DNA of 64,000 nt from Candidatus Woesearchaeota archaeon (GCA_964385425.1 CAYLOQ010000001.1:1411-65410); one strand, 5' to 3'; numbered from the stretch's first letter, positions 1 to 22,420 are shown. Notes: generated by a model from the letters alone, not told the origin. A program made the numbers and translations.

Positions 1-382
1 ATTAAAATCAAGAAAAATCTTATTTATCTTTTTCATAGAGTCTTCAAATTCATCCATTTCTAGATTGTATAAATTTTCTAAAAAATTTTCAACTGATTTA
101 ACATAATCTTTTCTACTATTATTTACAATTCCCTTAATCTCCTCTTTTTCTTTTTTTGCTTCAATATTAACAGATTCTAAAATAACTATCTTTTCTCTAA
201 TCTCCTTACCGAATTTTCTAATTTTTTCCCTAATTATAACAAGTATTTCTTTTTCTTTAACCTCATTTTCTTTTATTCTATTTTCAATCCAACCTTTAAT
301 TTCGGAAAAAGCGAGCTTTTCAATAACGATTTCTTCAGCCTTGTCTTGCCTAAATAATTTTTTGAATAATTCAAAGATTCCC
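1..382 (-). CDS. Partial hypothetical protein; the 5' part lies in the window and the gene runs off the window start
   Basis: Reverse-strand reading frame is open from the ATG at 380-382 to the window edge (MGIFELFKKLFRQDKAEE...). It is not in the ORF track because no stop lies inside the window. A TATA-like box plus a conserved motif sits immediately upstream at 392-431. Confidence 0.4.
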
Positions 383-417
383 ATACTAGATTCCTAGAAA
401 TCTTATTATATAAAGAT

Positions 418-431
418 ACGCCCACGCCGAG
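418..431. repeat. Copy 1 of the GC-rich motif ACGCCCACGCCGAG (matches the tRNA-Asp 3' end)
   Basis: It is immediately flanked by a TATA-like box. The region 392-431 is nearly identical to 3191-3228, including TAGAAATCTTATTATATAAAGAT. It lies 36 nt upstream of the ATG of the partial ORF at 1-382. Confidence 0.7.
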
Positions 432-556
432 CGGTTAAGATTTGTTTAACGCCCTTATTTTTATCTTAAAATATACACGTATAATCCCTTTTTAAAATGG
501 GGTTGTTACCCAATGGGGTGCGGAAGATGAAATCATCTCAAAATTTTTTGTATTTT

Positions 557-1360
557 CTATATCCCACTCTGCCAATCTTTCAAAATATCCCTTGCTGCCC
601 TATCAGAATTAACTTCACCACCTTTTTTCAAAAAACCTTTTTTCTTTCCAATCTTTTCAATTAAATCCTCTGCATTATCAAATTTCATTTTATAAAATTC
701 CTCTAACTCTTTCTTATCGCTCTTTACAATTTCATTAAGTGCAAGTTCTGGATTCTTAACTTGATTATGCGACCTCCCACCAACCTTAACATGCCTTGCT
801 ATTTTTTCCTCATTTGTCGTAGAATATTCGTCAGAAGAAATAACCCCTGGAGAATCTAACAAGACTATACTTTCTGTAAGTCTTAATTTCTGAATCCCTT
901 TTGTAAACCCCGCCTCAGAACTTGTTTTCGCCGAATTCTTTCCAATTAAAAGATTAATCAAAGAACTCTTCCCAGTATTAGGATACCCAATAACCCCCAC
1001 CCGAACACGACGATAATCTCCTTCCAATTTCACCCTTGCTGCTTCTGCTTTAATTTTATTTCTTAACTCTGTAATTCCTGTTCTCTTTTTACATGAAACA
1101 AAAACTCGCGGATTCAAACTCTTGTCTTTTTTTCGCGTGAGGTCAGATTTATTCAAAACATAAATCATTTTCTTTCCTTTATCAAAAACCGCCTTTTCAA
1201 TTTCTTTATTTTGCATCTCTTTCACAAACCGCGCATCAAGAATCTCTAAAACAATATCAGAAGTCTCAATTATCTCCCCCAATAACTCAGGATATTTCCC
1301 TCTCTGCTTTCTGATATTCTTTAATCTTTTCCCAGAACGAGCTTGTCTCCTTGTTGCCAT
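557..1360 (-). CDS. Circularly permuted GTPase, RbgA/YlqF/Nug1-like ribosome-biogenesis GTPase
   Basis: The G4 motif NKSD precedes G1 GYPNTGKSS and G3 DSPG, the circular-permutation order. A DARF(V) motif is present, and the N-terminus is basic. Confidence 0.7.
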   Translation of the reverse strand: MATRRQARSGKRLKNIRKQRGKYPELLGEIIETSDIVLEILDARFVKEMQNKEIEKAVFDKGKKMIYVLNKSDLTRKKDKSLNPRVFVSCKKRTGITELRNKIKAEAARVKLEGDYRRVRVGVIGYPNTGKSSLINLLIGKNSAKTSSEAGFTKGIQKLRLTESIVLLDSPGVISSDEYSTTNEEKIARHVKVGGRSHNQVKNPELALNEIVKSDKKELEEFYKMKFDNAEDLIEKIGKKKGFLKKGGEVNSDRAARDILKDWQSGI

Positions 1361-1518
1361 AAAAAATTAAAGAGATAATAGTTTATTAAATAAACGCAAA
1401 CCAACAATCTTATAAACCTAGAATTTTGTTTAATATTATTATATATTGTTAAAGTCTTGGAGCTTAGCTACAAAGGCTTGGTTTCAAGAATAATTCTTGA
1501 AAATAATAATTAATTAAA

Positions 1519-2901
1519 ATGAAAACGTTTAAAGAACTCGGACTAAGTAGTGAGTTTGTATCTGTGCTTGAAAAAGACAAGATTACAACTCCTTCGGAAA
1601 TTCAGGAAAAAACAATTCCCATAGTCTTAGCAGGGCGAGATGTGATTGGAGGTTCTGCGACAGGTTCTGGAAAAACTCTTGCGTTTGCCTCAAGCATGAT
1701 AGAAAATCTTGAGAAAAGCGGAAGAATTCAAGCATTAATTTTAACACCAACAAGAGAACTTGCTGAACAAGTTTCAAATGCAATCTCAAAATTCTCCAGA
1801 CACAAAAAATTAAATGTTCTTCCTATTTATGGAGGAGTTAATATTAAATCTCAGATTAGAAAAATTCATAGCACAGATATCATTGTGGGAACTCCAGGAA
1901 GAATTTTAGACCACATGCGAAGGGGAACCTTAAATTTAGATTATGTTAAATCTCTTGTTTTAGACGAAGTTGATAGAATGTTTGATATGGGATTTCAAAG
2001 GGATGTTGAAAGAATTCTTGGTCAATGTCCCAAGAAAAGACAGACAATGCTTTTTTCAGCGACGATATCTGCTGAAATAAATTATCTTGCTAAAAAATAC
2101 ACTCAAAAACCAGCAGAGGTTTCTATTCAATCACACATCGACCCATCAAAACTTAAACAAACCTACTACAATGTTTTAGATGGTTTGAAGTTTTCATTAT
2201 TTGTTTATTTGTTAAAAAAAGAAAAAAATAATCTAGTAATGGTATTCTGCGGAACAAGACGTAATGTTGATTTTGTTGCAAATAATCTGATTAATCTTGG
2301 AATTAATGCGAAGGCGATTCACGGAGGGATGATCCAAAATAAAAGAACAAGAGTTATGGATGAGTTTAATTCAGAAAATGGTGTGAATGTTTTAGTGTGC
2401 ACAGACGTAGCTGCAAGAGGACTTGATATTTTTGGGGTGAGCCACGTATACAATTATGATTTACCAAAAACAAGTTCAGATTATATTCATCGAATCGGCA
2501 GAACAGCCAGAGCAGGACGAGATGGAATTGCAATTAGCATCTTATGCAGCAGAGATTATGAAAACTTTGGGAATATTTTAAGAGATAAAGAATTAAAAAT
2601 TAACGAGGTGAAAACTCCCTTTTTTGAAAGAGTTAGAATGATTACTAAAACTGGAAATAAAAAAAGATATTCTGATTCAAGGCAAAGATACCAAAGTCGT
2701 GGGAGAAGTAATGGACAAAGAAGAGATAGCAGAAGAAGTAAAAGTGGAGGGAGGAGTTTTAGTGGTGGAAGAAAATATAGTGATAATAAAGCAGATAGAG
2801 GAGAAAGAAAAAGTTTTGGAAGACATCCAACAAGAGGAAATGTTAAAAGAAAAAATTACAGAAAACATAATTTTAGAAGTGGTGGAAGTCAAGGAAGATG
2901 A
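1519..2901 (+). CDS. DEAD-box ATP-dependent RNA helicase with an RG/RS-rich C-terminal tail
   Basis: Q-motif TPSEIQ, motif I GSATGSGKT, Ia PTRELA, II DEVD, III SAT and VI HRIGRTARAG are all present. The C-terminus is a low-complexity R/G/S-rich tail. Confidence 0.85.
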   Translation: MKTFKELGLSSEFVSVLEKDKITTPSEIQEKTIPIVLAGRDVIGGSATGSGKTLAFASSMIENLEKSGRIQALILTPTRELAEQVSNAISKFSRHKKLNVLPIYGGVNIKSQIRKIHSTDIIVGTPGRILDHMRRGTLNLDYVKSLVLDEVDRMFDMGFQRDVERILGQCPKKRQTMLFSATISAEINYLAKKYTQKPAEVSIQSHIDPSKLKQTYYNVLDGLKFSLFVYLLKKEKNNLVMVFCGTRRNVDFVANNLINLGINAKAIHGGMIQNKRTRVMDEFNSENGVNVLVCTDVAARGLDIFGVSHVYNYDLPKTSSDYIHRIGRTARAGRDGIAISILCSRDYENFGNILRDKELKINEVKTPFFERVRMITKTGNKKRYSDSRQRYQSRGRSNGQRRDSRRSKSGGRSFSGGRKYSDNKADRGERKSFGRHPTRGNVKRKNYRKHNFRSGGSQGR

Positions 2902-2936
2902 TAAGATTAAAGAAAATTATTTTTTAATTCCTTTCC

Positions 2937-3182
2937 TCAATCAAACCAACCCAACTTCTCGTCCTTTGGCAATTTCTTTATTGCATACTCGCATTTACAC
3001 GCACCTGATTTGTCCCTGCACTGCTTAGCCCGAAGTAATTTCTTAAAACCTTTTTGAAAAACATATTTACTTCCCTTCCCCTCAGCATGCGTATTCATCC
3101 GCGCGTCAACATCTATCGTCACCCCTGTATAAAACGAACCATCCCCACATTCAAGAATATAAACATACCATTGTTTTTTCAT
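2937..3182 (-). CDS. GIY-YIG nuclease domain protein
   Basis: YVYIL...GSFYTGVT...R...H at the N-terminus fits the GIY-YIG pattern. It is a small 81-aa protein with a Cys-rich C-terminus. Confidence 0.65.
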   Translation of the reverse strand: MKKQWYVYILECGDGSFYTGVTIDVDARMNTHAEGKGSKYVFQKGFKKLLRAKQCRDKSGACKCEYAIKKLPKDEKLGWFD

Positions 3183-3214
3183 ATAATTATTTAGAAATCT
3201 TATTATATAAAGAT

Positions 3215-3228
3215 GCGCCCACGCCGAG
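3215..3228. repeat. Copy 2 of the motif (GCGCCCACGCCGAG) with extended conserved flanks on both sides
   Basis: The left flank (3191-3214) matches copy 1 and holds the TATA box of the GIY-YIG gene. The right flank (3229-3262) matches 9078-9104 and contains the hairpin GGACA-aaag-TGTCC. Confidence 0.7.
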
Positions 3229-3291
3229 GGTAGGACAAAAGTGTCCCCATTAGGGTAAAGAAAAAGGTGTCTACACCCCTAAAATTTGTGG

Positions 3292-4287
3292 TCACCTAGT
3301 TAATTTTTTTAAAGCTGAATATTCTTTGATCAATAAATCAATGGTTGGCCTTAGATTCCCTTTTGTTTGATACTCTTGTAAGGATTCATAATATTGTCTT
3401 TGATTTCTTAGATCAATATTTACTGGAGGAAAGTCATTTTTAAGTAAGATATTATTCAGCAACAACCTCCCAACCCTACCATTCCCATCAGCGAAGGGGT
3501 GTATATTTTCAAATTGGTTATGAACAACAGATGCTAATACGAGTGCAGGGTATCTTGATCTATTTTTATTATACCATCTGATAAGTTCATTAAGTAAAGA
3601 ATTTATTCTTGATTGAGGAGCTCCAAAATGAATTATATTCCCATAGCCATCTCTAACAACAACTTCTTGTCCTTTAATTCTGAATTTGCCTGCAAAATCT
3701 TTTGAATTTTTAAAAACAATTTTATGTAAATCTAAAATAAATTTTATTGATATATGTTCCCCTGTTTTTCTTATAAATTTAATAGCATCATTCACACCAT
3801 AAGTTTCTGCTATATCTTGCTTTGATTTTTTTGGCCATTTTCCCTTCTCCAAGATATCTTTTACTTCTTTTTTTGTTATTTCACTACCTTCTATTGCATT
3901 AGTATTATACGAAAAAAGCTCTGAAAAAGTTCTCCATTGTTCTTCCGATAAATGGATTATTCTTAATTTCTGACTCTTTTCTAGATTTTCAATCAGTTTT
4001 ATTTCTTTTTTTGATAACGGTGTTTTAAGAGGATCTTTAATTATTTTATATTGTTCAATTTCCTCGAGAATTATTTTTTCTGCTTTATCTAGCCTTCCTT
4101 TTAACTGTTCTTCATTTATATTTTTTCCTAGAAACTTCCTTATTTTATTTACTTTTCCATCTTCTCTAAAAGAATGTGCTAAATAATATTTTATTCTGTT
4201 TCCTTCCTTTCTCTTCTCGACATACATAACAACAAATAGGTGACTACATATATAAATCTTTCTATTGTATTGTCTACATACGCCCAC
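3292..4287 (-). CDS. Fic/Doc family protein (AMPylation-type Fic domain)
   Basis: Canonical Fic motif HPFADGNGRVGRLL. The real start is probably the internal Met near 4227 (MYVEKRK...), because the longest ORF overlaps the upstream repeat motif. Confidence 0.8.
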   Translation of the reverse strand: MGVCRQYNRKIYICSHLFVVMYVEKRKEGNRIKYYLAHSFREDGKVNKIRKFLGKNINEEQLKGRLDKAEKIILEEIEQYKIIKDPLKTPLSKKEIKLIENLEKSQKLRIIHLSEEQWRTFSELFSYNTNAIEGSEITKKEVKDILEKGKWPKKSKQDIAETYGVNDAIKFIRKTGEHISIKFILDLHKIVFKNSKDFAGKFRIKGQEVVVRDGYGNIIHFGAPQSRINSLLNELIRWYNKNRSRYPALVLASVVHNQFENIHPFADGNGRVGRLLLNNILLKNDFPPVNIDLRNQRQYYESLQEYQTKGNLRPTIDLLIKEYSALKKLTR

Positions 4288-4293
4288 GCCGAG
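4280..4293. repeat. Copy 3 of the motif ACGCCCACGCCGAG
   Basis: Upstream of the Fic gene. A TATA-like TTTATATAT box lies about 25 nt further toward the gene. Confidence 0.65.
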
Positions 4294-4333
4294 TGCTATG
4301 GGGTGTAGGACTTCGACTCCCTGTTAGGGAATC

Positions 4334-4347
4334 ACGCCCACGCCGAT
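4334..4347. repeat. Copy 4 of the motif (ACGCCCACGCCGAT variant)
   Basis: 40 nt from copy 3, between the Fic and pentapeptide genes. Confidence 0.6.
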
Positions 4348-4431
4348 AGTAGTTTGGGAGTAGTATAAGAGTGTTATAGTTGGAGAATTTTAATCCCTCC
4401 ATAGCTCAATGGTTCTGTATTAACCACTTAA

Positions 4432-5106
4432 CTATTCTTCACGAAAATCAAATTCTGGTGTAATGGCCTTTAATATAATCTTTTTTTCCCTATTCGTTAC
4501 AATAGTTTTTCTATACCCCCTATCTTCAAACTCACCCTCTCCAAATATTGCCGCTTGTATCCAGGGATTATCCCATAAACCTACCGATCCTCTAAGATCG
4601 GCCCCGCCAAACCTTACTCCATAGAGATTCGCATCTGTAAAATCTGCTTCTCTTAGATCAGCTCCATAGAGCTGAGCTTCACGGAGTTCTGTCTTTCTAA
4701 GACTTACTCCCCTTAGATCAGCCATGTGAAGAGTTACTCCTTCAAGATTTGCTAAACTAAGATCAGCCCCTTGAAGCCTTGCTCCTTTAAGATTAGCCTG
4801 ATAAAGCCTTGCTCCTTTAAGATCCGCTCCTTCAAGATTTGCATTTACCCCCCTTAAATAAGGCATATGAAGATCTCTTGCAATTAAACCTTGAAAATTA
4901 GAGTCTTCTATTGTTATTGGGTTCTCTCTGAAATAATCATTAATTAAATACTCTCTTAATACTCTAAAGCTCGGATGTCCACTTAAATTTAAATTCCTTC
5001 CCACTCTTCTAGAGAAATCTCTTCTTCCACTCAATATCCGCATAATTTCATCTGCAGTTATTGGTCTTAATTCAACACTGGTTTCTGTTTGTTCCATAAT
5101 TCCCAC
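4432..5106 (-). CDS. Pentapeptide repeat protein
   Basis: Tandem A(D/N)LxG pentapeptides, e.g. ADLKGARLYQANLKGARLQGADLSLANLEG... Confidence 0.8.
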   Translation of the reverse strand: MGIMEQTETSVELRPITADEIMRILSGRRDFSRRVGRNLNLSGHPSFRVLREYLINDYFRENPITIEDSNFQGLIARDLHMPYLRGVNANLEGADLKGARLYQANLKGARLQGADLSLANLEGVTLHMADLRGVSLRKTELREAQLYGADLREADFTDANLYGVRFGGADLRGSVGLWDNPWIQAAIFGEGEFEDRGYRKTIVTNREKKIILKAITPEFDFREE

Positions 5107-5141
5107 ACAAATTCTTCCTTTTTAAACTTTATGATATAAAT

Positions 5142-5155
5142 ACGCCCACGCCGAG
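5142..5155. repeat. Copy 5 of the motif ACGCCCACGCCGAG
   Basis: Immediately adjacent to the TATTTATATCA TATA-like box upstream of the pentapeptide-repeat gene. Confidence 0.65.
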
Positions 5156-5249
5156 AATAATACACTTTTGCATATCTAAGAGGTGTACTTTTGTGCCTCT
5201 TTAAATGACTAAATGAATAATGTTTAAATAATTTTGTATAAAAATAAAT

Positions 5250-8006
5250 TTATCTATATGTTACTTTTCTTATTTTATAATGTTTCTTAATCTTTTCCCT
5301 TTTAATTTCATTTTTTAGAATCATCCTGTTTAATTTTTGCTGCATTTTTGATGATTTCTTATCTTCATAAAATCTTTTATTAGAATAATCCTGCCCAAAC
5401 CTTATTTCTCCACGGATATTAAGAGATTTGAAAAGGACAATTATCATTAAAACAATAAACCCTATTAACAAAATTAATTTAGTGAAACTCCCAAATAATA
5501 TTGATGAATTTTCTTGAGTATTAATGTTATTTGATAGGATTTCTATAAGGAAAGAAGAGCCATAATATATTGAAATGATTAATGCAATTATTGAAACCAA
5601 AGAAATTATGATTATGAAAACTGTTTTTATGATTCCTCCAAAATTTGACTTATGATAATTGTATGGTTCTCTCTTCCTTTTCATCACTGAAATTATTATA
5701 AAAGTAGCTATTGCCAATAAAGATATGATTCCAATAAATAAAATAGGAATTTTTCCTTTAGGACCAAATGGAAAATATTCTCCTATATCAGGAATTCCTA
5801 TAATTCCTCCTGTTATTGATGGTGTATCTCCTTCATTATCTATTACTCTACCCCCACCAGAACTACTAGCACCACTTATGGTAAAGGTGTCAAAGAATTT
5901 ATCAGTTCTACTCCCTAAATTATAATATCCTGCTTCACATTGGAAAATATATGATTGAGTTGCTATAAATGTAGAAGGAACAAGAATTGCTTTATTTACC
6001 TTAAGAAGTGTCCTGTTAATCATCTGATTAAAATTAAATGAGTTATAATTATTAACTCCATCATTTAAATAACAAGTAAAATCAACTTCTTTTTCAACAA
6101 CCTGAGAGTCCTCTACTTGTGCAGATATTGAGCAAGTCATTTCGCTTCCTGAACTTGCTTGGGCAGGGCAATCAACCGAAAGATGGAAAGTCCCTGTTTT
6201 GGATTCTACTCCTTCAAGAGCAGAAGCTTGTCTTTGTTGGACTTGTAAATTTAAATCACTTGAATATCTACATGAATCTGAATTATTTACTATTATTGTG
6301 AAAGTATTATATGGTTCTACATCTGCAAATCCAATTAAAGTCATTCTATTGGTTTCTTCAAAGAAAGAAACATCTACTTCAGAAGTTCCTGCGTGTTTAA
6401 AATAAGGTATTGTAATTATATCATTTATTGTGCTTGAACTTCCTGCATCAGTTTCAATTCTTTTTTCTATACATCCTGCTATAACATCTCTATCTGTATT
6501 TTCAAAACAATATCTTGCTATAAATTTTGTTTCGTCTATTCCAAAATAATCATAAGTTATATTTACCTCCAATTCATTACAAGCACTAATTGATGAATCA
6601 AATGCACTTGTAGATATATTCACAACATCAATTATTTTAATATAGGGTGTTCCAACTTCATGCCCATAATAATTAAATTCATCTGATTCTAACTCTAAAT
6701 CTTGATCAAAATCTTCTAAATGTAAATGAAAATTAATATCAAAATCATTCCCTCCTACCACATGTGTAGGTAATAAAAACTCCTCTGAACATCTTTCAAC
6801 TACGCCCTCATCAATTTGTGGTTTTACAGAAGTCCTCATGATCACACTTTCTCCTTGTAATGTTTCCCCTGTGTCTAAACTTATTGGGAAAAAATGTTGT
6901 TCTAAGGTATCATCATCAAAACTTACTTCATTCACAAAAATAAACTTTTCTTCTGTGAAAGTATTATTTAATAATATACATAATGATGCAGGTTTTCCAC
7001 CAGTTAAAAATCCTTGACCATTTGTAGTTTTATTTCCTTCTACAGAATTATTGAAAGTACCCCAAGAAATATCTTCTTGGTTTATTCTTGTTGGTCCATC
7101 TGTTATTTGAATTTTTCCACCGAATTCATCTTTTAAATAAACAGCAGGGTACATCCCTTGACTTGCAGTAAAATCATCATGGAATCCTGTAGCGTTAGCC
7201 CATTTTTTATTTATCATAAAATCATTTAAATCATCAATTAAAAATCCCCTAGTTCCCTCCCCTGAAGAACCCTCTGCTGAGTTAGAACATTTATTGTCAT
7301 TCCCTGTTGGACAAAAACAATTAATATCTGTTAGATATTGAACCCCTGCTTTAAAATGGGCATCATCTATTTCAAAATCTACATCTAAATCTCCATTATG
7401 ATTTGATATTTCTTCTATTCCTGAAACAATAGTATTCCCACCAATTGTTTCTATATCGATTCTACAAGAAGCACCAGCAGTTCCAATTTCTGTTCCGTTT
7501 TTTACTTTTGCAGAAATTGCTAAAGTTGTTCCAATGAAGTTTTGAGTGCTTATTACAATCTCTTCTATTAATAAATCACTTCCTGTTGCAGCATTTATTG
7601 TTGCATTACTTTGTCCTGTTAAACCTCCTCCACCAGATAGTGTTGCATTAAGAACATTTCCATAAACAGATATATAAGAAGAATTAATTACGAAAGATTC
7701 AAAGAATTCATTATTTGGAGATGTAGTTGAACTTGGAGTTGTGCCTGTTGAAGTATCTACCACATGACCTGTCGCATTTGTCCAATTCACAGTATATGCT
7801 TGATTTTTCTCATTTCCTGTAGTTATTTCCATTTCTAAAGTCGCAGTTGAACCTTCAACATAGACTTCAGAATCTAAAACTGCCGTTGAAGCAGAAACAA
7901 AATTTATTAAGAATATAAATGAAAACAAAGATATTCCTAAAAGTAGGATCACAAATTTAGTTTTCATTTTTACCCCCCTCCCAATAATGTAATTTTGCTC
8001 TACCAA
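5250..8006 (-). CDS. Large secreted/surface protein of about 900 aa with an N-terminal signal peptide, three C-terminal TM helices and a basic cytoplasmic tail
   Basis: Probable start at the MKTKFVILLLGISLF... Met near 7967. The protein is Thr/Ser/Asn-rich with many N-x-S/T sequons. The C-terminus has hydrophobic segments followed by a K/R-rich tail, the same topology as the giant protein at 42624-53513. Confidence 0.6.
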   Translation of the reverse strand: MVEQNYIIGRGVKMKTKFVILLLGISLFSFIFLINFVSASTAVLDSEVYVEGSTATLEMEITTGNEKNQAYTVNWTNATGHVVDTSTGTTPSSTTSPNNEFFESFVINSSYISVYGNVLNATLSGGGGLTGQSNATINAATGSDLLIEEIVISTQNFIGTTLAISAKVKNGTEIGTAGASCRIDIETIGGNTIVSGIEEISNHNGDLDVDFEIDDAHFKAGVQYLTDINCFCPTGNDNKCSNSAEGSSGEGTRGFLIDDLNDFMINKKWANATGFHDDFTASQGMYPAVYLKDEFGGKIQITDGPTRINQEDISWGTFNNSVEGNKTTNGQGFLTGGKPASLCILLNNTFTEEKFIFVNEVSFDDDTLEQHFFPISLDTGETLQGESVIMRTSVKPQIDEGVVERCSEEFLLPTHVVGGNDFDINFHLHLEDFDQDLELESDEFNYYGHEVGTPYIKIIDVVNISTSAFDSSISACNELEVNITYDYFGIDETKFIARYCFENTDRDVIAGCIEKRIETDAGSSSTINDIITIPYFKHAGTSEVDVSFFEETNRMTLIGFADVEPYNTFTIIVNNSDSCRYSSDLNLQVQQRQASALEGVESKTGTFHLSVDCPAQASSGSEMTCSISAQVEDSQVVEKEVDFTCYLNDGVNNYNSFNFNQMINRTLLKVNKAILVPSTFIATQSYIFQCEAGYYNLGSRTDKFFDTFTISGASSSGGGRVIDNEGDTPSITGGIIGIPDIGEYFPFGPKGKIPILFIGIISLLAIATFIIISVMKRKREPYNYHKSNFGGIIKTVFIIIISLVSIIALIISIYYGSSFLIEILSNNINTQENSSILFGSFTKLILLIGFIVLMIIVLFKSLNIRGEIRFGQDYSNKRFYEDKKSSKMQQKLNRMILKNEIKREKIKKHYKIRKVTYR

Positions 8007-8163
8007 CAGGCCTAATTCTAATTAATTTTGCCCCCTTTAATTCTGCAAGAACGACGGCAACAGTGTTCCTAGAAATTTTTAAACCTCTTGCAATATCAAT
8101 TATTGTAAGTCCGTCTGTATTTTTTCTTAGAAGACTCTTAACTAATTCACCTTTTGTTTTCAT
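7957..8163 (-). CDS. Small winged-helix (MarR/ArsR-like) DNA-binding regulator
   Basis: 68 aa; LTIIDIARGLKISRNTVAVVLAELKGAKLIRIRPVG is HTH-like. It overlaps the start of the downstream surface-protein gene, so the two are probably co-transcribed. Confidence 0.5.
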   Translation of the reverse strand: MKTKGELVKSLLRKNTDGLTIIDIARGLKISRNTVAVVLAELKGAKLIRIRPVGRAKLHYWEGGKNEN

Positions 8164-8166
8164 TGT

Positions 8167-8266
8167 GCGTTAACGCTTAGTTTTATAAGTTATCTTTAAA
8201 ACTTTGTTTTATAAGTCATTTTTAAAGTTTAATGATATAAGTTATCTTTATTAATTATCTTTAATG
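8167..8266. promoter_or_regulatory. Palindrome GCGTTAACGC plus three to four tandem 25-26-bp iterons (TTTTATAAGTTATCTTTAAA) upstream of the wHTH regulator gene
   Basis: Direct repeats at 8181-8202, 8207-8227 and 8233-8253, with a partial fourth at 8254-8266. A 10-bp perfect palindrome lies at 8167-8176. Confidence 0.5.
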
Positions 8267-8390
8267 TTTATTATTGGTGCACAATAGTTTATAAATGTTT
8301 TTAATCGGTTTATGATATCAAAAAGATTTCAATAAAGCCCAGAAAGAGCGTTGGGATAATTTTAAAAAGACTTAACCCAGCTTATTTTTT

Positions 8391-8906
8391 ATGGATAATC
8401 GTAATGGAGAAGTTAGTCCTCTTGAAATAATTAGTGGGCAAGGAAGTATGGAAACCCCCGAATCATTTAGAGATAAGGCGAGGGGGTGGGTTGTAGATAC
8501 ATCCATAGCAGTTCTATGGAGTAATCTTGTTTTTGCACCAGGTGATTATGTTTTAGGTGGTTTGTGGGGGGATGAATTTGTTAAACAAAGAGTAGGAATG
8601 AGTTTGTTTAATTTGGCGTTTGGTGGGGTATTTGGAAAATTTAGAAATTATTGGACAAAAAATGTAATGAAGGCCACACCAAATAGTTCAAGATTTTACA
8701 AGGCAGTTAGTGATACCACAGCAGGTGCTATTTTTTATGGTCCTATTTATGTTGGACTTATTAAATCCCATGGGGCTTCATGGGAAGAAACATTTGCAGC
8801 ATTAGGGGGAGGACTTCTAACAGCCGCAATCACAGGTAGGCCCTATGGTTTGTGCCAAGATAAATGGAGAAAATTATTTGGAGTTAGGCCAGCTCTAGAA
8901 GAATAG
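8391..8906 (+). CDS. Hypothetical protein, paralog of 21771-22325
   Basis: Shares aligned blocks (K.R.GM..F, ASWEE/ASLEE...GGL, PYG...WRKLF/PF.EFWRTKVF) with the ORF at 21771-22325. Confidence 0.5.
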   Translation: MDNRNGEVSPLEIISGQGSMETPESFRDKARGWVVDTSIAVLWSNLVFAPGDYVLGGLWGDEFVKQRVGMSLFNLAFGGVFGKFRNYWTKNVMKATPNSSRFYKAVSDTTAGAIFYGPIYVGLIKSHGASWEETFAALGGGLLTAAITGRPYGLCQDKWRKLFGVRPALEE

Positions 8907-9063
8907 TTATAAATAAAACTCCCTCTACTCTCCCAGAAAGGGCGTTGAGAAGGTTTATTCTATGTGTTTATATGGATCTCGTTTCATATTGTGTACAATT
9001 TACAGATCTTTTTATAGAACCTGTATGTTTATTGTACACCCCACTAAAATGCAAAAATGTAGT

Positions 9064-9077
9064 ACGCCCACGCCGAG
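9064..9077. repeat. Copy 6 of the motif ACGCCCACGCCGAG with a hairpin-bearing extension
   Basis: 9064-9104 is near-identical to 3215-3262 (GAGGGTAGGA[CT]AAAAGTGTCCC). It lies between convergent genes, so it is not obviously a promoter. Confidence 0.65.
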
Positions 9078-9150
9078 GGTAGGATAAAAGTGTCCCAGTT
9101 GGGGGGTTAATATAAATCTAAACTCACCTTTAATAGAAGCTCAATAGTAA

Positions 9151-9459
9151 TTATTTCTGAACCGATAATAAATTCTTAACTGCTCCAACTAAAGAACCCT
9201 GTTGAAAATTTTTTGCTAAACTATCTATAACCGCAAGTAATCCAGGAGTATAAATCGCAATTTGTGCAACATTTGATAATTCAATTTCTTGACCTCTTAA
9301 TACCCCTGGTGCTAAAAAGCTACCTAAACAAATTGCTCCCTGAACAGCATAATTTCGGATTATTTCTCCATTACTTCTATTTTGAGAATCGTATAGCTCG
9401 TCATTGCTTCTAGCACTATACCATTCTTTTTGATCATGCAAAAAATTTTCTAATGCCAT
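9151..9459 (-). CDS. Hypothetical protein
   Basis: 102-aa ORF with a TATA-like box upstream. I recognise no motif. Confidence 0.4.
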   Translation of the reverse strand: MALENFLHDQKEWYSARSNDELYDSQNRSNGEIIRNYAVQGAICLGSFLAPGVLRGQEIELSNVAQIAIYTPGLLAVIDSLAKNFQQGSLVGAVKNLLSVQK

Positions 9460-9523
9460 GGAAATAAATGATAATAAGTGATTTATAAACTTTTCTATTT
9501 TGTCTTAATTCTTGAGTAACAAA

Positions 9524-9537
9524 GCGCCCACGCCGGG
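9524..9537. repeat. Copy 7 of the motif (GCGCCCACGCCGGG, the variant matching the tRNA in 13 of 13 core nt)
   Basis: Lies between two minus-strand genes, about 45 nt upstream of a TATA-like box for the ORF at 9151-9459. Confidence 0.6.
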
Positions 9538-9576
9538 GATAGAACTTTTTGTTAGATTTGGTGGGAGTTAAATTGT

Positions 9577-9996
9577 TTATTTACTTCTTTCAGAAACATT
9601 ACAATCAACATCAACATATCTTACTTCTACTTTAAATCCCAATTCTCTCAATTTATGTATTGTATTCTTTTGTTGATTATCCAGATGGGAAGAATTTGAT
9701 TTTACTTCCACAAAAGAAATTTCCTTTGTGTCTTGATCGATACAAACTAAATCAGGAAAACCAAGAATATTATCCTTTATTATTTTGATAACTTCTTTAA
9801 TTCTCTTTGTATCAATTTCCTCCCAAATCATCATATTTTGGATTCTTCCAATCATGGTTGTATTTATTGGGCTTATAACTTTATCATTAGTAAAATCAAC
9901 CCTCACAACATTTTGATTTTCTTCTTTCTTAAGTTTTGAAACAATATAATCTTCTGCAATTCTTCCTAAACTTGTTGTTGATATATCTTCATTCAT
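9577..9996 (-). CDS. Hjc-like PD-(D/E)xK nuclease (Holliday-junction-resolvase / restriction-endonuclease fold)
   Basis: N-terminal G..AE..V motif, then PDLVCIDQD...VEVKS, which matches the PD-x(n)-(D/E)xK catalytic core of the Hjc family. It has a longer insert than canonical Hjc. Confidence 0.5.
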   Translation of the reverse strand: MNEDISTTSLGRIAEDYIVSKLKKEENQNVVRVDFTNDKVISPINTTMIGRIQNMMIWEEIDTKRIKEVIKIIKDNILGFPDLVCIDQDTKEISFVEVKSNSSHLDNQQKNTIHKLRELGFKVEVRYVDVDCNVSERSK

Positions 9997-10044
9997 AGAA
10001 TATGGTGTTGAATTTGCCTATTTATACCTTGCTAAATGTTATGT

Positions 10045-10575
10045 TCAAGAAATAAATCTAAAACACTCATTTAAGCATTCTTTTTGAAAGCTATAGATTT
10101 TATTGTAATGTTTGATTAGAAAATAATCATTGGTGTATCTATTAAGAGGACTGTATTCTCCTTTTGGATATCTTGAAGAATTTACATGAGATGATAAAAT
10201 TTGTTGTAAGAGAAAATTTGGAGTAGTAATTTTCCCAACCCTTAAATTAGATTTACCAGAATCTATTTCAGATAATAGTGATTTGATTACTTCTATGATA
10301 GCTAAAAATATTTTTTCATTATCTATAGGAGTATTCTCTAAAATTTTAGTTTCTTCTTTCAAATCGTCATTCACCATATTTTTGTAAATATCTAGAGTTT
10401 TATGGCCATGCTTGAAGATTCCAGTAATACCTTTAGTTGTCTTTTCCACACTTTGTTGTAATAAGAAAATAGATTGAGGATATTTTCCATTTTCATAAAG
10501 TATCTTGGAAGACTCCAAATCTTCTAAGGCCATTTTTATAAAATTTTCATTTTCTTCTTTCATTTTTAACCACAT
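10045..10575 (-). CDS. HEPN domain protein
   Basis: The N-terminal helix pair ALEDLESSKILYENGKYPQSIFLLQQSVEKTTKGI matches the HEPN N-terminal pattern. It overlaps the start of the upstream secreted-nuclease gene by 10 nt. Confidence 0.55.
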   Translation of the reverse strand: MWLKMKEENENFIKMALEDLESSKILYENGKYPQSIFLLQQSVEKTTKGITGIFKHGHKTLDIYKNMVNDDLKEETKILENTPIDNEKIFLAIIEVIKSLLSEIDSGKSNLRVGKITTPNFLLQQILSSHVNSSRYPKGEYSPLNRYTNDYFLIKHYNKIYSFQKECLNECFRFIS

Positions 10576-11552
10576 AAACTCTCACAGGGAACTCCATCAT
10601 CATCACCATCTAATTCATTAACATCATAACTACAAGCATCAAATACATCCATTACTTCTGAACAAGAATTGAAATCTCCACAATTGTAAACATTTCCTCC
10701 ACAGCCAACCGTATTTACTATAACATCATCAGTCTTTGCAGATGAAGTATCCCATATCCCTATTTCTTTACCTTTTGCAATACTCTCTGCATCTTCTATT
10801 ATTGAACACTTAGAAGTATCTGGAGAATAAGGATAAGCTCTCCCATAACCTTGTAGAACAATTCTTAGATTAATAAAACAATTAGCTAAATCTGTGCAAT
10901 CTTTTTTAGTATAGATATATCTTAATAATCTTCCATACCTGTCTGTTTCTGAAATATCTTTTTCAAGATAAACTTCTTTATTAAAAATAAGATTTGTAAG
11001 ATAATCTTTTGCTTCTTGATAACCATCTTCATAAGTCTCGGGGGTATCAATGCAAATTAATCTTACTCTTTCACCTGAACTTAATTCTATAGTATCCCCA
11101 TCAATAACTCTTGTTACTTTATACCAATTTTTAGTTTCTTCAAACGTTGGAGTTTCAATAATTTCATCAGAAACAATTTCTTCTTCTGGCTCTTGGATAC
11201 ATTCTCCATTTTCACAGCCATAAAGACAATGATAATTATTAAACCACGAAGTGCCGCAATCTGAATATTGATATTTTTTTTGGATATAATTCCCATTACA
11301 TCCATATTTATCTAAATATTCTGCTTTACAATTTTCCTCTCCAATGTTAGAAATAATTTTCCCAGTTGGTATCGGGTTTTCTCTCTCTTCTTCAGTTTTC
11401 TCAGGTATAGTTTCTTCTTGAATATCCTCTTCAGACGCTTCTTCTTTAATAACATTAGAAGTGATTGTAGGTTCTTCATCTGGAAGAAAAATTCCTGCAA
11501 ATGCGAAAACAAGAACAATTCCAATAACCCATAATGCTGTTTTTGTTTTCAT
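10566..11552 (-). CDS. Secreted staphylococcal-nuclease-like (SNase/thermonuclease) protein with a C-terminal Excalibur Ca-binding domain
   Basis: Signal peptide and Cys-rich N-region. The SNase core is VIDGDTIEL...VRLICIDTPE..., and the Excalibur motif is CGDFNSCSEV...DGDDDGVPCESLC. Confidence 0.75.
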   Translation of the reverse strand: MKTKTALWVIGIVLVFAFAGIFLPDEEPTITSNVIKEEASEEDIQEETIPEKTEEERENPIPTGKIISNIGEENCKAEYLDKYGCNGNYIQKKYQYSDCGTSWFNNYHCLYGCENGECIQEPEEEIVSDEIIETPTFEETKNWYKVTRVIDGDTIELSSGERVRLICIDTPETYEDGYQEAKDYLTNLIFNKEVYLEKDISETDRYGRLLRYIYTKKDCTDLANCFINLRIVLQGYGRAYPYSPDTSKCSIIEDAESIAKGKEIGIWDTSSAKTDDVIVNTVGCGGNVYNCGDFNSCSEVMDVFDACSYDVNELDGDDDGVPCESLCG

Positions 11553-11556
11553 TTAA

Positions 11557-12312
11557 TCAGAGTCCACTACTACCTCTTATATCACATTTAGTTATATTTT
11601 TTTCAATTTTACAATAAATGTTTGGTTCGTAGTCAATTGGTTCTGGGAGGATTGTATCACAACCACCACTACAATAAACTAAAATCTGTAGATTATATTC
11701 TGTATTAAATCCAAGTCCAGAAATGATATAATCTTTTGATTCCCCAATTCCCACAGAATTATTTTCTTTGTAATATAAAAGAAACCATGCTTCAGCTTCC
11801 CTTATAATAATGGAATTGGTGCTGGATAAATCTAAAGTTAGCTGTTTGGTTTCCTTAAACAAAGAAGGAATCTCTCCTATCCATATTCCACCCCTCTCTA
11901 AACCAAGAATACGATAGTAAACTAATACATTATAGGCGAGGTTATCTCTCGAATTACTAACAGATATATTTAATGTTTTTTTAATGGGATCAGAGACTGG
12001 TTCAGATACAACAATCAAAGGATTCTCTTCATTGGTTAATTTAAAAACAACCCAACCACTTAAAAGCCCAGAAACTAGCATTCCAATTATTGTTAATACT
12101 GTCAACCTTAATTGAAATTTATGAGTTTTAAAATTAAGATATTGTCGCTGGAGTCTATCATCATAATTGGGAGCTAGACCATTAGGATAATTTCTCTCAT
12201 CTTTCCTTGCTCTTCTATGTCTCCACCTTTCCGCTTCATCAAGATATTTGTCAAAAGCTTTGTAATCTCTTTTTTCAAACCAGTTTTTTATTCTATTCCA
12301 TTCTTTTCCCAT
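11557..12312 (-). CDS. Membrane protein with a single TM and an extracytoplasmic domain
   Basis: Basic N-terminus, then the TM segment LTVLTIIGMLVSGLLSGWVVF. No recognisable motif. Confidence 0.45.
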   Translation of the reverse strand: MGKEWNRIKNWFEKRDYKAFDKYLDEAERWRHRRARKDERNYPNGLAPNYDDRLQRQYLNFKTHKFQLRLTVLTIIGMLVSGLLSGWVVFKLTNEENPLIVVSEPVSDPIKKTLNISVSNSRDNLAYNVLVYYRILGLERGGIWIGEIPSLFKETKQLTLDLSSTNSIIIREAEAWFLLYYKENNSVGIGESKDYIISGLGFNTEYNLQILVYCSGGCDTILPEPIDYEPNIYCKIEKNITKCDIRGSSGL

Positions 12313-12424
12313 AAACTTAACACAAATTGTGTAATTTTATATCTTTGCTTTGCTTTGAAATCTCCTTCAGAATTGCATAAAATACTTATAATATGCAATA
12401 TTTAAAAGAGACAATATCTTAAAT

Positions 12425-13276
12425 TTGTATATGATTGTCAAAGCAAATTATTCTAATAAAGATAGTCTCTATACACAATTTAAAGAGAGTATGAAAATAA
12501 CCTCTAAACTGGATTCTGCAGAGAAAGGTTCTGAAATAAGACTTGATTTATCTGGAATTGGAAAACTTTTACCTTGTTCAATTGTTCTTTTATCAAATAA
12601 AATAATTGAATGTAGAAAAAAAGGAAAAAAAGTTAGCATAATCTATCCTAAAAATCTTTTAATTTCAAGGTACCTTGTTGATTTGGGCTTTGGATCTGAG
12701 TGGAATGGAAAGCTAAGAAAAAATTGTTATCCTATTGCTTCTTTTACAAACAAAGAAGACTTATCTAAAATAACAAATGATATGATTAATGCTATGAATA
12801 GGGTTATACCGAAAGCTTTTGGGGGAGGGGTGATGTATTTATTATCAGAGGTAATTGATAATGTTGAAGAACATTCCAGATTTGAATACGCTTCCGTAAT
12901 GGCTCAATATTATAGAAAAGATCACATTCTTGACATATGTATTTTAGATGATGGGATTACAATTCCAACTCTTTTTAGAGAAAACAAGATTAATTTTATT
13001 AGTGATAGAGATGCTATCCATAAAGCACTTGGTGGAACTTCAACAAAAAAAGAAGGTGGAAGAGGATTTGGATTGAGAACCTCTAAAAAATTAATTCTAA
13101 GGGGTTTGAGAGGTGAATTACATATAATATCAAGAAATGGTTTTGTATCTCTTAATGCCAGGAGAATAGAAGGAGAGAGAACACCTCTGATAAAAAAATC
13201 CTTCAAAGGAACAATGTTATATTTTAGATTTAGGGTTCCTAAGAAAACTTTAAATATCCATGAATATACAGAGTAA
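12425..13276 (+). CDS. GHKL-superfamily (histidine-kinase-like) ATPase
   Basis: N-box EVIDNVEEHS, G1 DDGITIP and G2 GGRGFGL. No His-phosphotransfer domain is evident. Confidence 0.6.
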   Translation: MYMIVKANYSNKDSLYTQFKESMKITSKLDSAEKGSEIRLDLSGIGKLLPCSIVLLSNKIIECRKKGKKVSIIYPKNLLISRYLVDLGFGSEWNGKLRKNCYPIASFTNKEDLSKITNDMINAMNRVIPKAFGGGVMYLLSEVIDNVEEHSRFEYASVMAQYYRKDHILDICILDDGITIPTLFRENKINFISDRDAIHKALGGTSTKKEGGRGFGLRTSKKLILRGLRGELHIISRNGFVSLNARRIEGERTPLIKKSFKGTMLYFRFRVPKKTLNIHEYTE

Positions 13277-13592
13277 TATGAAAAAAAAAACATTTCTTTT
13301 ATTTGATTATTTCCAAAATAATGTGGTGATTCGTAATCGAATGAGAGAATTTTTTAAGAAAGTAGAAAAGGAAAAAGCAGAGGATATAGTAATAGATTTT
13401 AAAAATATAGACTTTATTTCTCGTTCTTGTAGCGATGAGTATTTAAAACTTAAAGCAAAATCCAAAAAATTCTTTAAAGAGACGAATGTCAAAGACAATG
13501 TAAGAAAGATGTTGGAACAAGTATACAAAAGTCTAATTCATGTTGTTTATGAATCTAATTCAAATAAGAAATTCATTCCCATAAAGCATTAA
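13260..13592 (+). CDS. Small STAS-like (DUF4325-like) partner protein
   Basis: 110 aa. IDFKNIDFISRSCSDEYL resembles a STAS/anti-sigma-antagonist core. It overlaps the 3' end of the GHKL ATPase gene. Confidence 0.4.
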   Translation: MNIQSNMKKKTFLLFDYFQNNVVIRNRMREFFKKVEKEKAEDIVIDFKNIDFISRSCSDEYLKLKAKSKKFFKETNVKDNVRKMLEQVYKSLIHVVYESNSNKKFIPIKH

Positions 13593-13704
13593 ACTTATTC
13601 TGTAAATCGGAAGGGCTTATATGAGTATAAATTGTTGTGTATCTATCCTTGAATGTCCCAAGAGCTGTTGAACTTCTCTAAGGAATTGTAACACAAAGTA
13701 TATA

Positions 13705-13776
13705 CGCCCACGCCGGGAGTCGAACCCGGGTTACATCCGCGACAGGGATGAGTCATAGCCGTTAGACCACGTAGGC
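13705..13776 (-). tRNA. tRNA-Asp (anticodon GUC)
   Basis: The reverse complement folds as GCCUACG / D-arm / CAUCC-CUGUCGC-GGAUG (anticodon GUC) / CCGGG-UUCGACU-CCCGG / CGUGGGC + discriminator G. CCA is not encoded. Confidence 0.85.
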
Positions 13777-14127
13777 ACAATCATCAATGTTAGAATTTGT
13801 TTTTAAAGTTTTTGTTAAGGTTATTGGTTATGGTTCAATGGTTGAAACAATATTTGCTATAATAGAAGAGAATAACCCAAAAGCAGCAATTAATAATCCA
13901 ACATTGTCTAAAGCATTTAATTGTAGTAAAAGAATTATGAAGTAGATGAATATAATAAAATTGATTATTTGTGAAAAGATAGATAACGCATCCCCAACCT
14001 TCATTTTATATTATCGCTCTTATTATCCCATAAACTAATAAACCCAAGGCGATAATTCCCAAAATCCATGCGATGATTTGAAATATTTCTAAAGTCCTCT
14101 TTTTCATATTAGATTGAATTTCTATTT

Positions 14128-15423
14128 TTATTTAAACTTTTTCCTTTCGATCTTCTTCTTGCCATTCATATATTTCTGCAAAACTTTAGGGATTTTTATG
14201 CTACCGTCTTTTTCCTGGTTGTTCTCTATTATGGCTACCATCGCTCTTGATGTAGCAATCATTGTATTATTTAAAACATGAATATACTTCTTCTCCCCTT
14301 TTTCATTATATTTGATGTTTAAAGCTCTTGCTTGGAAGTCTGTACAATTACCTGCAGACGTTATTTCTTTGTATGCTTTCTGTCTTGGGAACCACGCCTC
14401 AATGTCGTATTGTCTCGTAAATTTATCTCCTAAATCTCCAGAACAAAGTTCAACAACCCGATAATGAATTTTTAGGGTTTTAAAAAATTCTTCTGTTATT
14501 TTCTGTATTTCTTCTAACATCTTTGGGGAATTTTTAGGAGTTGTGAACACGACTTGCTCCACCTTATTGAATTGGTGCATCCTGAATAATCCTTTCGTAT
14601 CAACACCATGACTTCCTATCTCTTTCCTAAAACAAGGTGTTAAAGCACAAAATTTTATTGGAAGATTTTTTTTATTTATTGCCTTGTTTTTTAACATAGA
14701 AACCAGAGAATGCTCTGAGGTCCCTATCAAGTATAAATCTTTTTTATCTACCTTATAAACAACATCTTCAAAATCCTGTAATCCGTTAAGTGCCCCTAAA
14801 AGAGTTTCAAACTTTAAGAGCATTGGTGGAACAACAGGAACAAATCCTTTTTTTATAATAAAATCCATTCCATATCTCTGAAGAGCATGGTCTAACTGGG
14901 CAATATCTCCTAAAAGATAATTGAAACCCTGTCCAGAATTACTTCTTCCAGCATCAAAATCAGCATAACCCATGGCTTCTATAAGCTCTGCGTGATTCTT
15001 GGGCTCAAAACCAAGTTTTGTGGGTTTCCCCCATTTTCTAATCTCAACATTATCCTTGTCTGTCTTACCAATAGGGACTTTTGGATGCATTATGTTTGGA
15101 ATCTTTAGCATTATTTCCCTTATTTCTCCCCGAAGTTTCTTGGTTTTTTCTTCTATCTTCTCAATTTTTCCAGGAATTTCTTTTGCTTTTTTTATCAGCT
15201 CTTTAGCTTTCTTTTCGTTTTTTTGTTTTTTTGCTCTGTTAATATCCATAGAAATTTTGTTCCTCTGACTTCTCAGGCCATCTGCCTTATATTTCAATTT
15301 CCTCCATTCTCCATCCAATTCCCTGACTTTATCAACAAGAAATAGTTTTTCTTTCTGGAATTTCTTCTTTATATTGTCTTTTACTAACTTAGGATTTTCC
15401 CTAATTAGATTTATATCAATCAT
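14128..15423 (-). CDS. serS: Seryl-tRNA synthetase
   Basis: N-terminal coiled-coil tRNA-binding arm, class II core, GTSEHSL and other SerRS-typical blocks. Length is 431 aa. Confidence 0.9.
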   Translation of the reverse strand: MIDINLIRENPKLVKDNIKKKFQKEKLFLVDKVRELDGEWRKLKYKADGLRSQRNKISMDINRAKKQKNEKKAKELIKKAKEIPGKIEKIEEKTKKLRGEIREIMLKIPNIMHPKVPIGKTDKDNVEIRKWGKPTKLGFEPKNHAELIEAMGYADFDAGRSNSGQGFNYLLGDIAQLDHALQRYGMDFIIKKGFVPVVPPMLLKFETLLGALNGLQDFEDVVYKVDKKDLYLIGTSEHSLVSMLKNKAINKKNLPIKFCALTPCFRKEIGSHGVDTKGLFRMHQFNKVEQVVFTTPKNSPKMLEEIQKITEEFFKTLKIHYRVVELCSGDLGDKFTRQYDIEAWFPRQKAYKEITSAGNCTDFQARALNIKYNEKGEKKYIHVLNNTMIATSRAMVAIIENNQEKDGSIKIPKVLQKYMNGKKKIERKKFK

Positions 15424-15494
15424 AAAACAGAGAGAGAAATATTCTATTTAAATTTATTGAATAGATTTTTATAATCCGGATTTTTTCTTGTGTT

Positions 15495-15820: not shown

Positions 15821-16042
15821 CTCTTCTCACTCTACCCTCTTTTATATCTTTAAAACCATCTATTAATTGTATTAAGAGTTCTGAATCTACATTTGCTAAC
15901 TTCGCTTCCATTTTTAATCTTTCATATTCTTTCCTTGGGACTTTTATCATTTCCATATATGATAATGTTAATGAAAGTTTATATAATTTACGATTAGTAA
16001 TTTATTGAATAGATTTAAAAATAACATTGTCTAAATTAATTA

Positions 16043-21707: not shown

Positions 21708-21770
21708 TGATGTTACTTCTAAGTTAAGACAAAAGGAAGGGTTTAAAAATCACTATCTAATTGAATTTGT

Positions 21771-22325: not shown

Positions 22326-22420
22326 CCCCCTAACTGAGACACTTTTATGCCTCTCTTGGCGCGGGCGTTTTTTATCTTTTACTACAACAATATTTAAAAA
22401 GGAGTTATCGTCTTAATTTT

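Follow-up and report, generated by a model that had tools for sequence, protein, structure and literature searches.

The window analysed here, a 64-kb stretch of DNA from Candidatus Woesearchaeota archaeon, contains on the 3' side of its tRNA-Asp(GTC) gene an array of short repeats of the end of that gene, with protein genes between them. The window belongs to a 505-kb scaffold. The SerRS encoded beside tRNA-Asp matches only metagenome-assembled genomes (MAGs) of DPANN archaea (Woesearchaeota, Pacearchaeota, and 'Nanoarchaeota'), and its best match is 83% identical; the source lineage is a DPANN archaeon (Woesearchaeota/Pacearchaeota, GTDB Nanoarchaeota). The repeats were located by searching the window, with at most one mismatch, for the 13-mer CGCCCACGCCGRG, the reverse complement of the tRNA-Asp 3' end; this core is also written as the search pattern CGGCGTGGGCGT. 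Eight matches were obtained, all on the plus strand (419, 3216, 4281, 4335, 5143, 9065, 9525, and 13705), and 100 dinucleotide-preserving shuffles gave none (expected 0 versus 8 observed). The sole mismatch is a T as the last base of the copy at 4335, and the inner 11-mer CGCCCACGCCG is identical in 8 of 8 copies. No further copy of the 11-mer in the same orientation was found in the window with up to two mismatches.

The copies correspond to the T-stem 3' strand, the acceptor 3' strand, and the discriminator of tRNA-Asp, reverse-complemented. All eight are co-oriented with the tRNA, the displaced ones all lie on its 3' side over a span of 13.3 kb, and their starts are spaced by 2797, 1065, 54, 808, 3922, 460, and 4180 nt. 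An earlier sequence-only reading of this DNA had described seven extra co-oriented copies on the 3' side and a GC-rich motif in an AT-rich background; both descriptions are borne out (the G+C content of the window is 30–37%, against which the core stands out), although the coordinates then given included the preceding base and were off by one. The core was found neither in the remaining 50 kb of the window nor in the 9.4 kb scanned beyond its left edge, and in all of this sequence the motif is restricted to the 3' flank of tRNA-Asp. Over window positions 1217–12399, a second and independent assembly of the same run, by Logan, has the identical sequence; therefore, the array is not an assembly artefact. 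A CRISPR or other regularly spaced repeat array was considered and rejected, as the spacing is irregular (54 to 4180 nt) and genes lie between the repeats.

In the orientation of the tRNA, each copy is located directly 3' of the stop codon of a co-oriented gene, and for most copies a TATA-like box and a gene come next. The array extends from tRNA-Asp to the copy at 419, where it is bounded by a gene for a 391-aa protein that is strongly conserved in the clade. Its features are as follows; att denotes an attachment site, and all cores were located by the motif search.

13705–13776, minus strand: intact tRNA-Asp(GTC), the target (attB/attL); Rfam RF00005, 56 bits, E 5.7e-10, the only RNA family found in 1–16000; ARAGORN 13704–13777
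13705–13717, minus strand: core copy 0, the last 13 nt of the tRNA (CCCGGCGTGGGCG in the tRNA sense)
13576–13685, minus strand: relic of an Xer-like tyrosine recombinase (translation, tblastn)
9538–13704, minus strand: unit 1, tRNA-proximal, 4.2 kb (open reading frames (ORFs), Pfam), with the integrase relic, a 110-aa ORF (13260–13592, plus strand), an HATPase_c protein (12425–13276, plus strand), a 251-aa ORF (11557–12312), SNase (10566–11552), HEPN (10045–10575), and VRR-NUC (9577–9996)
9525–9537, minus strand: core copy 1 (CCCGGCGTGGGCG)
9078–9524, minus strand: unit 2, 460 bp start-to-start, with one 102-aa ORF (9151–9459) and a P-arm module (9078–9111) at its end
9065–9077, minus strand: core copy 2 (CTCGGCGTGGGCG)
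8958–9064, minus strand: integrase leader and first 10 codons (MKRDPYKHIE, 8987–8958; DNA and peptide homology)
5156–9064, minus strand: unit 3, 3.9 kb (ORFs, Pfam), with the integrase relic, AlaE (8391–8906, plus strand), a 68-aa ORF (7957–8163), and a 918-aa ORF (5250–8006; 905 aa in the gene call)
5143–5155, minus strand: core copy 3
4348–5142, minus strand: unit 4, 808 bp, with one pentapeptide-repeat gene (4432–5106; ORFs, Pfam)
4335–4347, minus strand: core copy 4 (ATCGGCGTGGGCG)
4294–4334, minus strand: unit 5, a 41-nt remnant without a gene (54 bp start-to-start)
4281–4293, minus strand: core copy 5
3229–4280, minus strand: unit 6, 1065 bp, with one Fic gene (3292–4227/4287; SoFic / PDC-S04-like) and a P-arm module (3229–3262) at its end
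3192–3228, minus strand: core copy 6 and 23 nt that match the 391-aa gene promoter exactly, together one copy of a 37-bp direct repeat (36/37)
432–3191, minus strand: unit 7, 2.8 kb (Pfam), with GIY-YIG (2937–3182), a DEAD helicase (1519–2901, plus strand), and an MMR_HSR1 GTPase (557–1360)
395–431, minus strand: core copy 7, the outermost, and the 391-aa gene's native promoter (gene start at 384, continuing past the window edge); outer boundary of the array

The sequence-only reading had placed one to three genes between copies. This is accurate for several units, but unit 5 is empty and the tRNA-proximal unit holds about seven ORFs. Among the cargo types that it named, GIY-YIG, Fic, the pentapeptide repeat, HEPN, SNase, and VRR-NUC (its 'Hjc-like' protein) were recovered by Pfam; GIY-YIG turned out to be a resident gene, as described below. 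The interval also has AlaE, the DEAD-box helicase, and the MMR_HSR1 GTPase by Pfam, and no Pfam match was found for the 918-aa protein of unit 3. The Fic protein matched the defence models SoFic/PDC-S04, and HEPN and SNase gave weaker matches. Unit 5 is a fragment of an arm (tgattccctaacagggagt) resembling the tRNA flank of L148 (L-numbered names are labels of the compared loci), fused to a P-arm fragment. Because 41 nt is too small to have integrated as such, unit 5 is regarded as a deletion product; since both of its cores were kept, deletion can shrink units while the flanking cores remain. Three tandem 26-nt direct repeats occupy positions 8170–8263, in the divergent intergenic region between AlaE and the 68-aa and 918-aa genes.

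The arms that flank the cores are mosaic. The downstream arms of copies 419 and 3216 are identical in 23 of 23 nt, giving the 37-bp repeat, and about 27 nt upstream of the core are common to copies 3216 and 9065 with 90% identity; for both patterns, the chance expectation is about 0 matches. Junction 3216 is thus composed of the upstream arm of 9065 and the downstream arm of 419, as expected where two integrated elements abut. The arms also match the tRNA flanks and integrase leaders of relatives. In particular, the arm downstream of copy 1 is conserved, bears a promoter, and is homologous to the tRNA-Asp flanks of L088, L089, and L126 and to a tRNA-Ser flank. The downstream arms belong to a few families. 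The integrase leader forms one of them and often has, about 25 nt from the core, a second GGGCGTA motif. Another family, a conserved arm with a promoter (GTTnCT...TAACAAATAG...TTTATAAA...ATGG), is placed after the tRNA or internal cores and ahead of unrelated genes. On the other side, an end module of about 33 nt precedes the core behind three unrelated genes at two tRNAs of this genome and behind a fourth gene in L122.

The bases next to the core were compared among downstream co-oriented copies from AT-rich metagenome loci and from L081, L082, L084, L088, and L089, in which 45 of 52 contexts are unique. In these 45 unique non-tRNA copies, the base 3' of the core is T in 91%, and the base at position −1 is T in 28 (62%), where the tRNA has the T-stem C. 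On account of these frequencies, the shared segment can be written as (C/T)T-CGGCGTGGGCG-T. The T at −1 suggests that the distal copy owes its upstream arm to the element; the crossover would therefore have to occur 3' of −1, with the tRNA preserved. A shared fold was sought in the 75 nt upstream of 13 cores, and neither an attC-like hairpin nor a tRNA-like structure was found. Around the copies, Rfam at E up to 0.1 returned the real tRNA-Asp only.

The sequence-only reading had stated that no integrase survives in the interval; this is correct for intact genes, but two relics are present. The one at 13576–13685 starts about 20–26 nt past tRNA-Asp and comprises the last 36 or so codons of an Xer-like tyrosine recombinase, with the peptide ..LREVQQLLGHSRIDT/TIYTHISPSDLQNKFNALWE* (second part TIYTHISPSDL...) and a reading frame broken by two 1-nt deletions. 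In tblastn it aligns with XerA-like C-termini in relatives, and its closest protein is P0121, a 51-aa fragment from a Pacearchaeota MAG annotated as a tyrosine recombinase (PF00589). No intact member of this integrase type was found. The only close database relative of the relic, L211 691–846, is, like the relic itself, a short fragment, in a Pacearchaeota MAG distinct from the window genome, and it is preceded by an inverted tRNA-3'-like sequence (CCGAGCGGGGGCG, other strand). A partition of the Sulfolobus spindle-shaped virus (SSV) type, with attP inside the integrase gene, was considered because an open frame ran from the core into the relic. It was rejected, as the homology of the relic to L211 begins about 20 nt past the core and the intervening nucleotides do not align with an integrase; an N-terminal integrase part reading into any core was not found. 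The second relic (8958–9064) shows DNA homology to the stretch from the tRNA to the integrase start in L092, L104, L134, L107, L111, and L189 (E down to 5e-15). Its peptide MKRDPYKHIE (8958–8987) matches the N-termini of the integrases of about 390 aa in L182, L154, and L209, and the remaining gene is deleted.

We scanned metagenome contigs with the tRNA-Asp 3' half GGGTTCRAYTCCCGGCGTGGGCG and obtained 120 loci. The 11-nt core was counted with at most one mismatch and without de-replication, over 346 kb downstream and 357 kb upstream of tRNA-Asp. Downstream there were 40 co-oriented and 3 inverted copies; upstream there were 1 co-oriented and 0 inverted. Clustering of ORFs revealed a protein of about 390 aa in 26 loci, which begins 48–170 nt past tRNA-Asp and is always co-oriented with it. 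Three representatives match Pfam Phage_integrase (PF00589), and no sequence relatives of this integrase were found in PDB. L172 contains a complete element, in which the tRNA is followed by the integrase, an RuvB-like ATPase, and other genes, with a core 9,663 nt downstream. In the closest genome (L001, with the 83% identical SerRS), tRNA-Asp is followed by an integrase of the same type at the contig end.

The interval from SerRS/tRNA-Asp to the 391-aa gene differs in gene content in each of L082, L084, L086, L088, and L089. Cores are present at the junctions of the relatives' intervals, with progressively decayed cores at orthologous positions. Exact and 90% cluster look-ups with nine array proteins, made to find close strain variants of the window genome, returned the same sample only, and the strain-level comparison is that of L120 with L157. 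These two loci are 97% identical over a 1.9-kb block with the DEAD helicase. The block abuts tRNA-Asp in L120, and two extra units intervene in L157, where a degenerate core (CCAGGCGTGGGGGACGT) marks the junction and precedes the arm that comes after tRNA-Asp in L120. The difference between these two near-identical strains therefore consists of entire units that are inserted precisely at the core, the kind of presence and absence of inter-repeat segments for which the sequence-only reading had proposed to look.

The tRNA-Asp genes of many relatives carry introns of about 30–85 nt after the anticodon region and are missed by ARAGORN; examples are those of L084 (4742–4893), L089, L092, L099, L106, and L118. 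The tRNA-Asp of L084 ends in CGGTCGGGGCG, but its downstream copy at 5538 is CGGCGTGGGCG. Since this copy differs from the resident tRNA end, the remnant preserves a different tRNA-Asp allele. In L150, CGGCGTGGGCG, CGGTGGGGGCG, and CGGTCGGGGCG form three tandem variant tRNA-Asp 3' ends within about 50 nt, in the first 60 nt past tRNA-Asp, which suggests elements from hosts with different acceptor stems.

Not all genes of the interval arrived as cargo. In many relatives, the order after tRNA-Asp is DEAD, GTPase, GIY-YIG, and the 391-aa gene, and in L116 the tRNA, GTPase, GIY-YIG, and 391-aa gene follow each other without intervening cores. Judged by these gene orders, GIY-YIG, the DEAD helicase, and the GTPase are residents of the locus. 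Their order is changed in the window, where they make up the outermost unit and the DEAD gene (1519–2901) is inverted relative to relatives; no inverted or degenerate cores with up to three mismatches were found around this gene. The possibility that GIY-YIG is a homing endonuclease that caused the repeats was rejected, as it is a stand-alone 81-aa protein conserved at the locus across relatives. In L120, L126, and L157, att cores lie on both sides of the DEAD helicase, although it has the look of a housekeeping gene; therefore, cores seem also to take part in rearranging resident DNA. Past the left edge of the window, L081 has a decayed core (TGGTGTGGGCT) 3 nt after the stop codon of the 391-aa gene, and the cores of relatives at this position are better preserved. 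L081 13290–13761, between the 391-aa gene and purine-biosynthesis genes, contains a HicB/HicA toxin-antitoxin pair and several small ORFs.

The array very probably consists of att remnants of serial, decayed integrations at the tRNA-Asp 3' end, as the sequence-only reading had proposed; the mosaic arms, the relics, the 40/3/1/0 bias of the core, the 26 integrase loci, and the comparison of L120 with L157 all support this explanation. The tRNA-Asp 3' end would serve in this lineage as the attachment site of integrative elements with tyrosine recombinases. A circular element would bring an attP in which the core (C/T)TCGGCGTGGGCGT is flanked by an upstream arm and by a promoter-bearing downstream arm. 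Exchange of strands inside the 11–12 bp of identity would leave an intact tRNA with the element behind it and a copy of the core at the element's far end, and each later integration at the tRNA would push older elements outward. Seven junctions would thus have been left over 13.3 kb, while the intervening elements decayed by deletion: of the integrases only the two relics are left, one unit is a 41-nt stub, and others still have between one and several genes of cargo (Fic/SoFic-like, HEPN, nucleases, pentapeptide repeat, and a large surface-like protein). On this view, the TATA boxes by the cores belong to the element arms, except at the outermost copy, where the box is part of the 391-aa gene's native promoter. 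We infer that the units become older with distance from the tRNA, and integrases like those of the relatives may have catalysed the events in this genome.

Several observations weigh against this explanation. No intact integrase that could be active in this genome was found in the interval or elsewhere in the 64-kb window. All cores are perfect, though the units look old and decayed, which needs recent events or repeated recombination at the cores. Unit 7 is rearranged and bracketed by the 37-bp repeat, an arrangement that simple serial insertion at the tRNA does not explain. In L089 and L090, the GTPase adjoins the 391-aa gene with no core between them, and in several relatives decayed cores also occur on the 3' side of the 391-aa gene. 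Finally, free or viral forms of the elements were not found in IMG/VR with the tRNA-or-arm-plus-core pattern, the L172 integrase, or an alignment of 10 integrase sequences.

The junctions could also be those of an integron-like platform, a reading that we consider unlikely. Integrase-less mini-units, each made of a 12-bp core, a promoter arm, a gene, and an end module of about 33 nt, would then be mobile cassettes; a resident or visiting integrase would excise them as small circles and reinsert them at any core, also in trans between genomes. The tRNA-Asp, and on a smaller scale a tRNA-Ser, would be not a graveyard but a site where genes are actively captured and shuffled, with units down to about 220 bp that may enclose residents such as the DEAD helicase, whose bracketing in L126, L157, and L120 fits this picture. 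Three compact single-gene units of the window, with 37–85 nt from gene to core on each side, look like cassettes, and a single-Fic unit lies between cores in L189 also. The recurrence of the end module behind unrelated genes at two tRNAs and in L122, and of one promoter arm ahead of unrelated genes, points the same way. However, conserved arms at all junctions are also expected from tandem ordinary elements, the empty 41-nt unit proves that deletion alone makes tiny units, and high coding density is normal in DPANN genomes. Furthermore, cassettes were found neither in circular form nor as identical copies in two genomic contexts, and the proteins of the window cassettes have no close copies elsewhere. 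A further candidate is a unit of 220–230 bp that encodes a 44-aa protein (METSQIELEKLSKQKLIEMIH...). It is 86% identical from core to core between L126 and L157, whereas the adjacent DEAD gene is 70% identical, and it adjoins the tRNA in L126 and holds a later array position in L157; the 44-aa gene could, however, simply be more conserved than the DEAD gene. This unit is located at −8 to +222 in L126, at +2763 to +2993 in L157, at 1208–1456 in L089, in L166, and at +3816 in L130 and L180. It is bounded by cores on both sides except in L130 and L180, where the core ahead of it lies about 780 nt upstream and none was found behind it.

Two further readings dispense with integration. The TATA-like boxes that abut the copies are visible in the sequence and real, and the sequence-only reading had suggested a conserved promoter-proximal element as an alternative or additional role; the motif would be a regulatory site, such as a transcription-factor site upstream of the TFB-recognition element (BRE) and TATA box, that resembles the tRNA end by chance. 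TATA-like boxes of co-oriented genes follow five or six copies, copies 419 and 3216 have the core and a promoter in common over 37 bp, and a core or decayed core lies ahead of the promoter of the 391-aa gene in several relatives. This promoter, whose TATA box is located at copy 419, is conserved in all relatives, but it would work without a core in L089 and L090, and the core is decayed in L084 and L086. Over about 60 kb of the genome, no core lies ahead of any other promoter, and the distance from core to TATA box varies from about 3 to about 50 nt. The copy at 4335 is followed only by another core, and behind that at 9065 come the start of a deleted integrase gene and then a gene in convergent orientation. 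Across relatives it is tRNA-Asp that the motif accompanies, not promoters, and its restriction to the variable segments by tRNA-Asp is what the sequence-only reading had named as speaking against a promoter element, which we therefore regard as highly improbable. It is more improbable still that the copies are relics of tandem tRNA-Asp duplicates, or that the mRNAs before them end in tRNA-like signals for processing or termination. Every copy does lie just 3' of a co-oriented gene, and its sequence is the acceptor/T-stem strand of the tRNA. However, no T-arm, 5' acceptor strand, or conserved fold was found upstream of the copies, the Rfam search mentioned above gave only the one real tRNA, and position −1 is T rather than the T-stem C in most copies. 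Some of the copies in relatives, moreover, lie 2–4 nt past a stop codon with coding sequence upstream.

Att remnants of the same kind may be present at a second tRNA of the window, outside the tRNA-Asp array. This one-unit case (21626–22367, plus strand) comprises the following parts.

21626–21707, plus strand: tRNA-Ser(GGA)
21771–22325, plus strand: AlaE-like gene
22321–22356, plus strand: P-arm module
22357–22367, plus strand: copy of the tRNA-Ser 3' end (10/11)

The tRNA-Ser 3' end TGGTGCGGGCG recurs in 10 of 11 positions, co-oriented and 650 nt downstream, and the one AlaE-like gene is bracketed. The end module and promoter arm of this unit are homologous to arms of the tRNA-Asp array; with arms shared at both loci, one element family seems to target two tRNAs whose 3' ends are similar.

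The locus follows the familiar mechanism of tRNA-targeted islands, in unusually dense and decayed form; it extends a known principle and does not change it. In islands of this type, the tRNA gene is split by the integrase and made whole again by the island, whose end can be told from the displaced fragment (PMC4383910). As here, the 3' part of the tRNA is hit and restored, a co-oriented direct repeat lies at the far end on the 3' side, an integrase gene is located beside the tRNA (here in relatives), and tandem arrays are possible. Islander lists 4 arrays of three or more members among 3919 islands, under criteria that demand an integrase for each member (PMC4383910), whereas the integrases here are all lost or relics. 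Archaeal cases leave partial tRNA genes, and the identity block of PYG1 in Pyrococcus yayanosii is 44 bp (PMC9897764), compared with only 11–13 bp here, where seven junctions fall within 13 kb of a DPANN genome. The tycheposon islands of Prochlorococcus, in which each new integration moves older elements further in and partial tRNAs and fragmented integrases are left behind (10.1101/2020.12.28.424599), resemble the present case in the streamlined genome, the hypervariable tRNA-anchored island, and the adaptive or defence-like cargo. They belong to another domain of life, have unrelated integrases, and are made of far larger units; in contrast to tycheposons, no replication or packaging modules were recognised in the array.

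Archaeal integrons were reportedly described in 2022. Integrons consist of mostly co-oriented, often single-gene units with a recombination site between them and a fixed anchor adjacent, and the array is similar in these respects. It differs in having no IntI-type integrase, no attI, and no attC hairpin, in being anchored at a tRNA, and in units with their own promoters. Membership among integrons was therefore rejected: no integrase gene is present in the window array, and the integrases of relatives are the distinct family of about 390 aa directly after the tRNA; the junction is a linear 12-nt core with variable arms and no common fold; and the units appear not to be promoterless, as TATA-like boxes follow most cores. 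At streptococcal tRNA-Lys genes, cis-mobilizable elements (CIMEs) and integrative mobilizable elements (IMEs) leave integrase-less, att-flanked remnants that accrete by the tRNA 3' end and can be mobilised in cis or in trans. The remnants are alike in being att-flanked, integrase-less, and placed at a tRNA 3' end; unlike the present ones, those of streptococci are bacterial, derived from integrative conjugative elements (ICEs), and were shown to be mobilised by experiment.

In practical terms, the 12-nt core provides a marker to delimit accessory DNA in these MAGs, and tRNA-Asp, which often contains an intron and is then missed by ARAGORN, is a likely cause of contig breaks. The genomes of DPANN archaea are tiny, and their mobile elements are poorly charted. 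The integrases that serve this site form a family without sequence relatives in PDB or IMG/VR, and within 13 kb the array still lets at least seven events be read. Judging from this locus, a single tRNA end is a lineage-wide entry point for foreign genes, including those of Fic/SoFic-like proteins, HEPN proteins, nucleases, and surface proteins.

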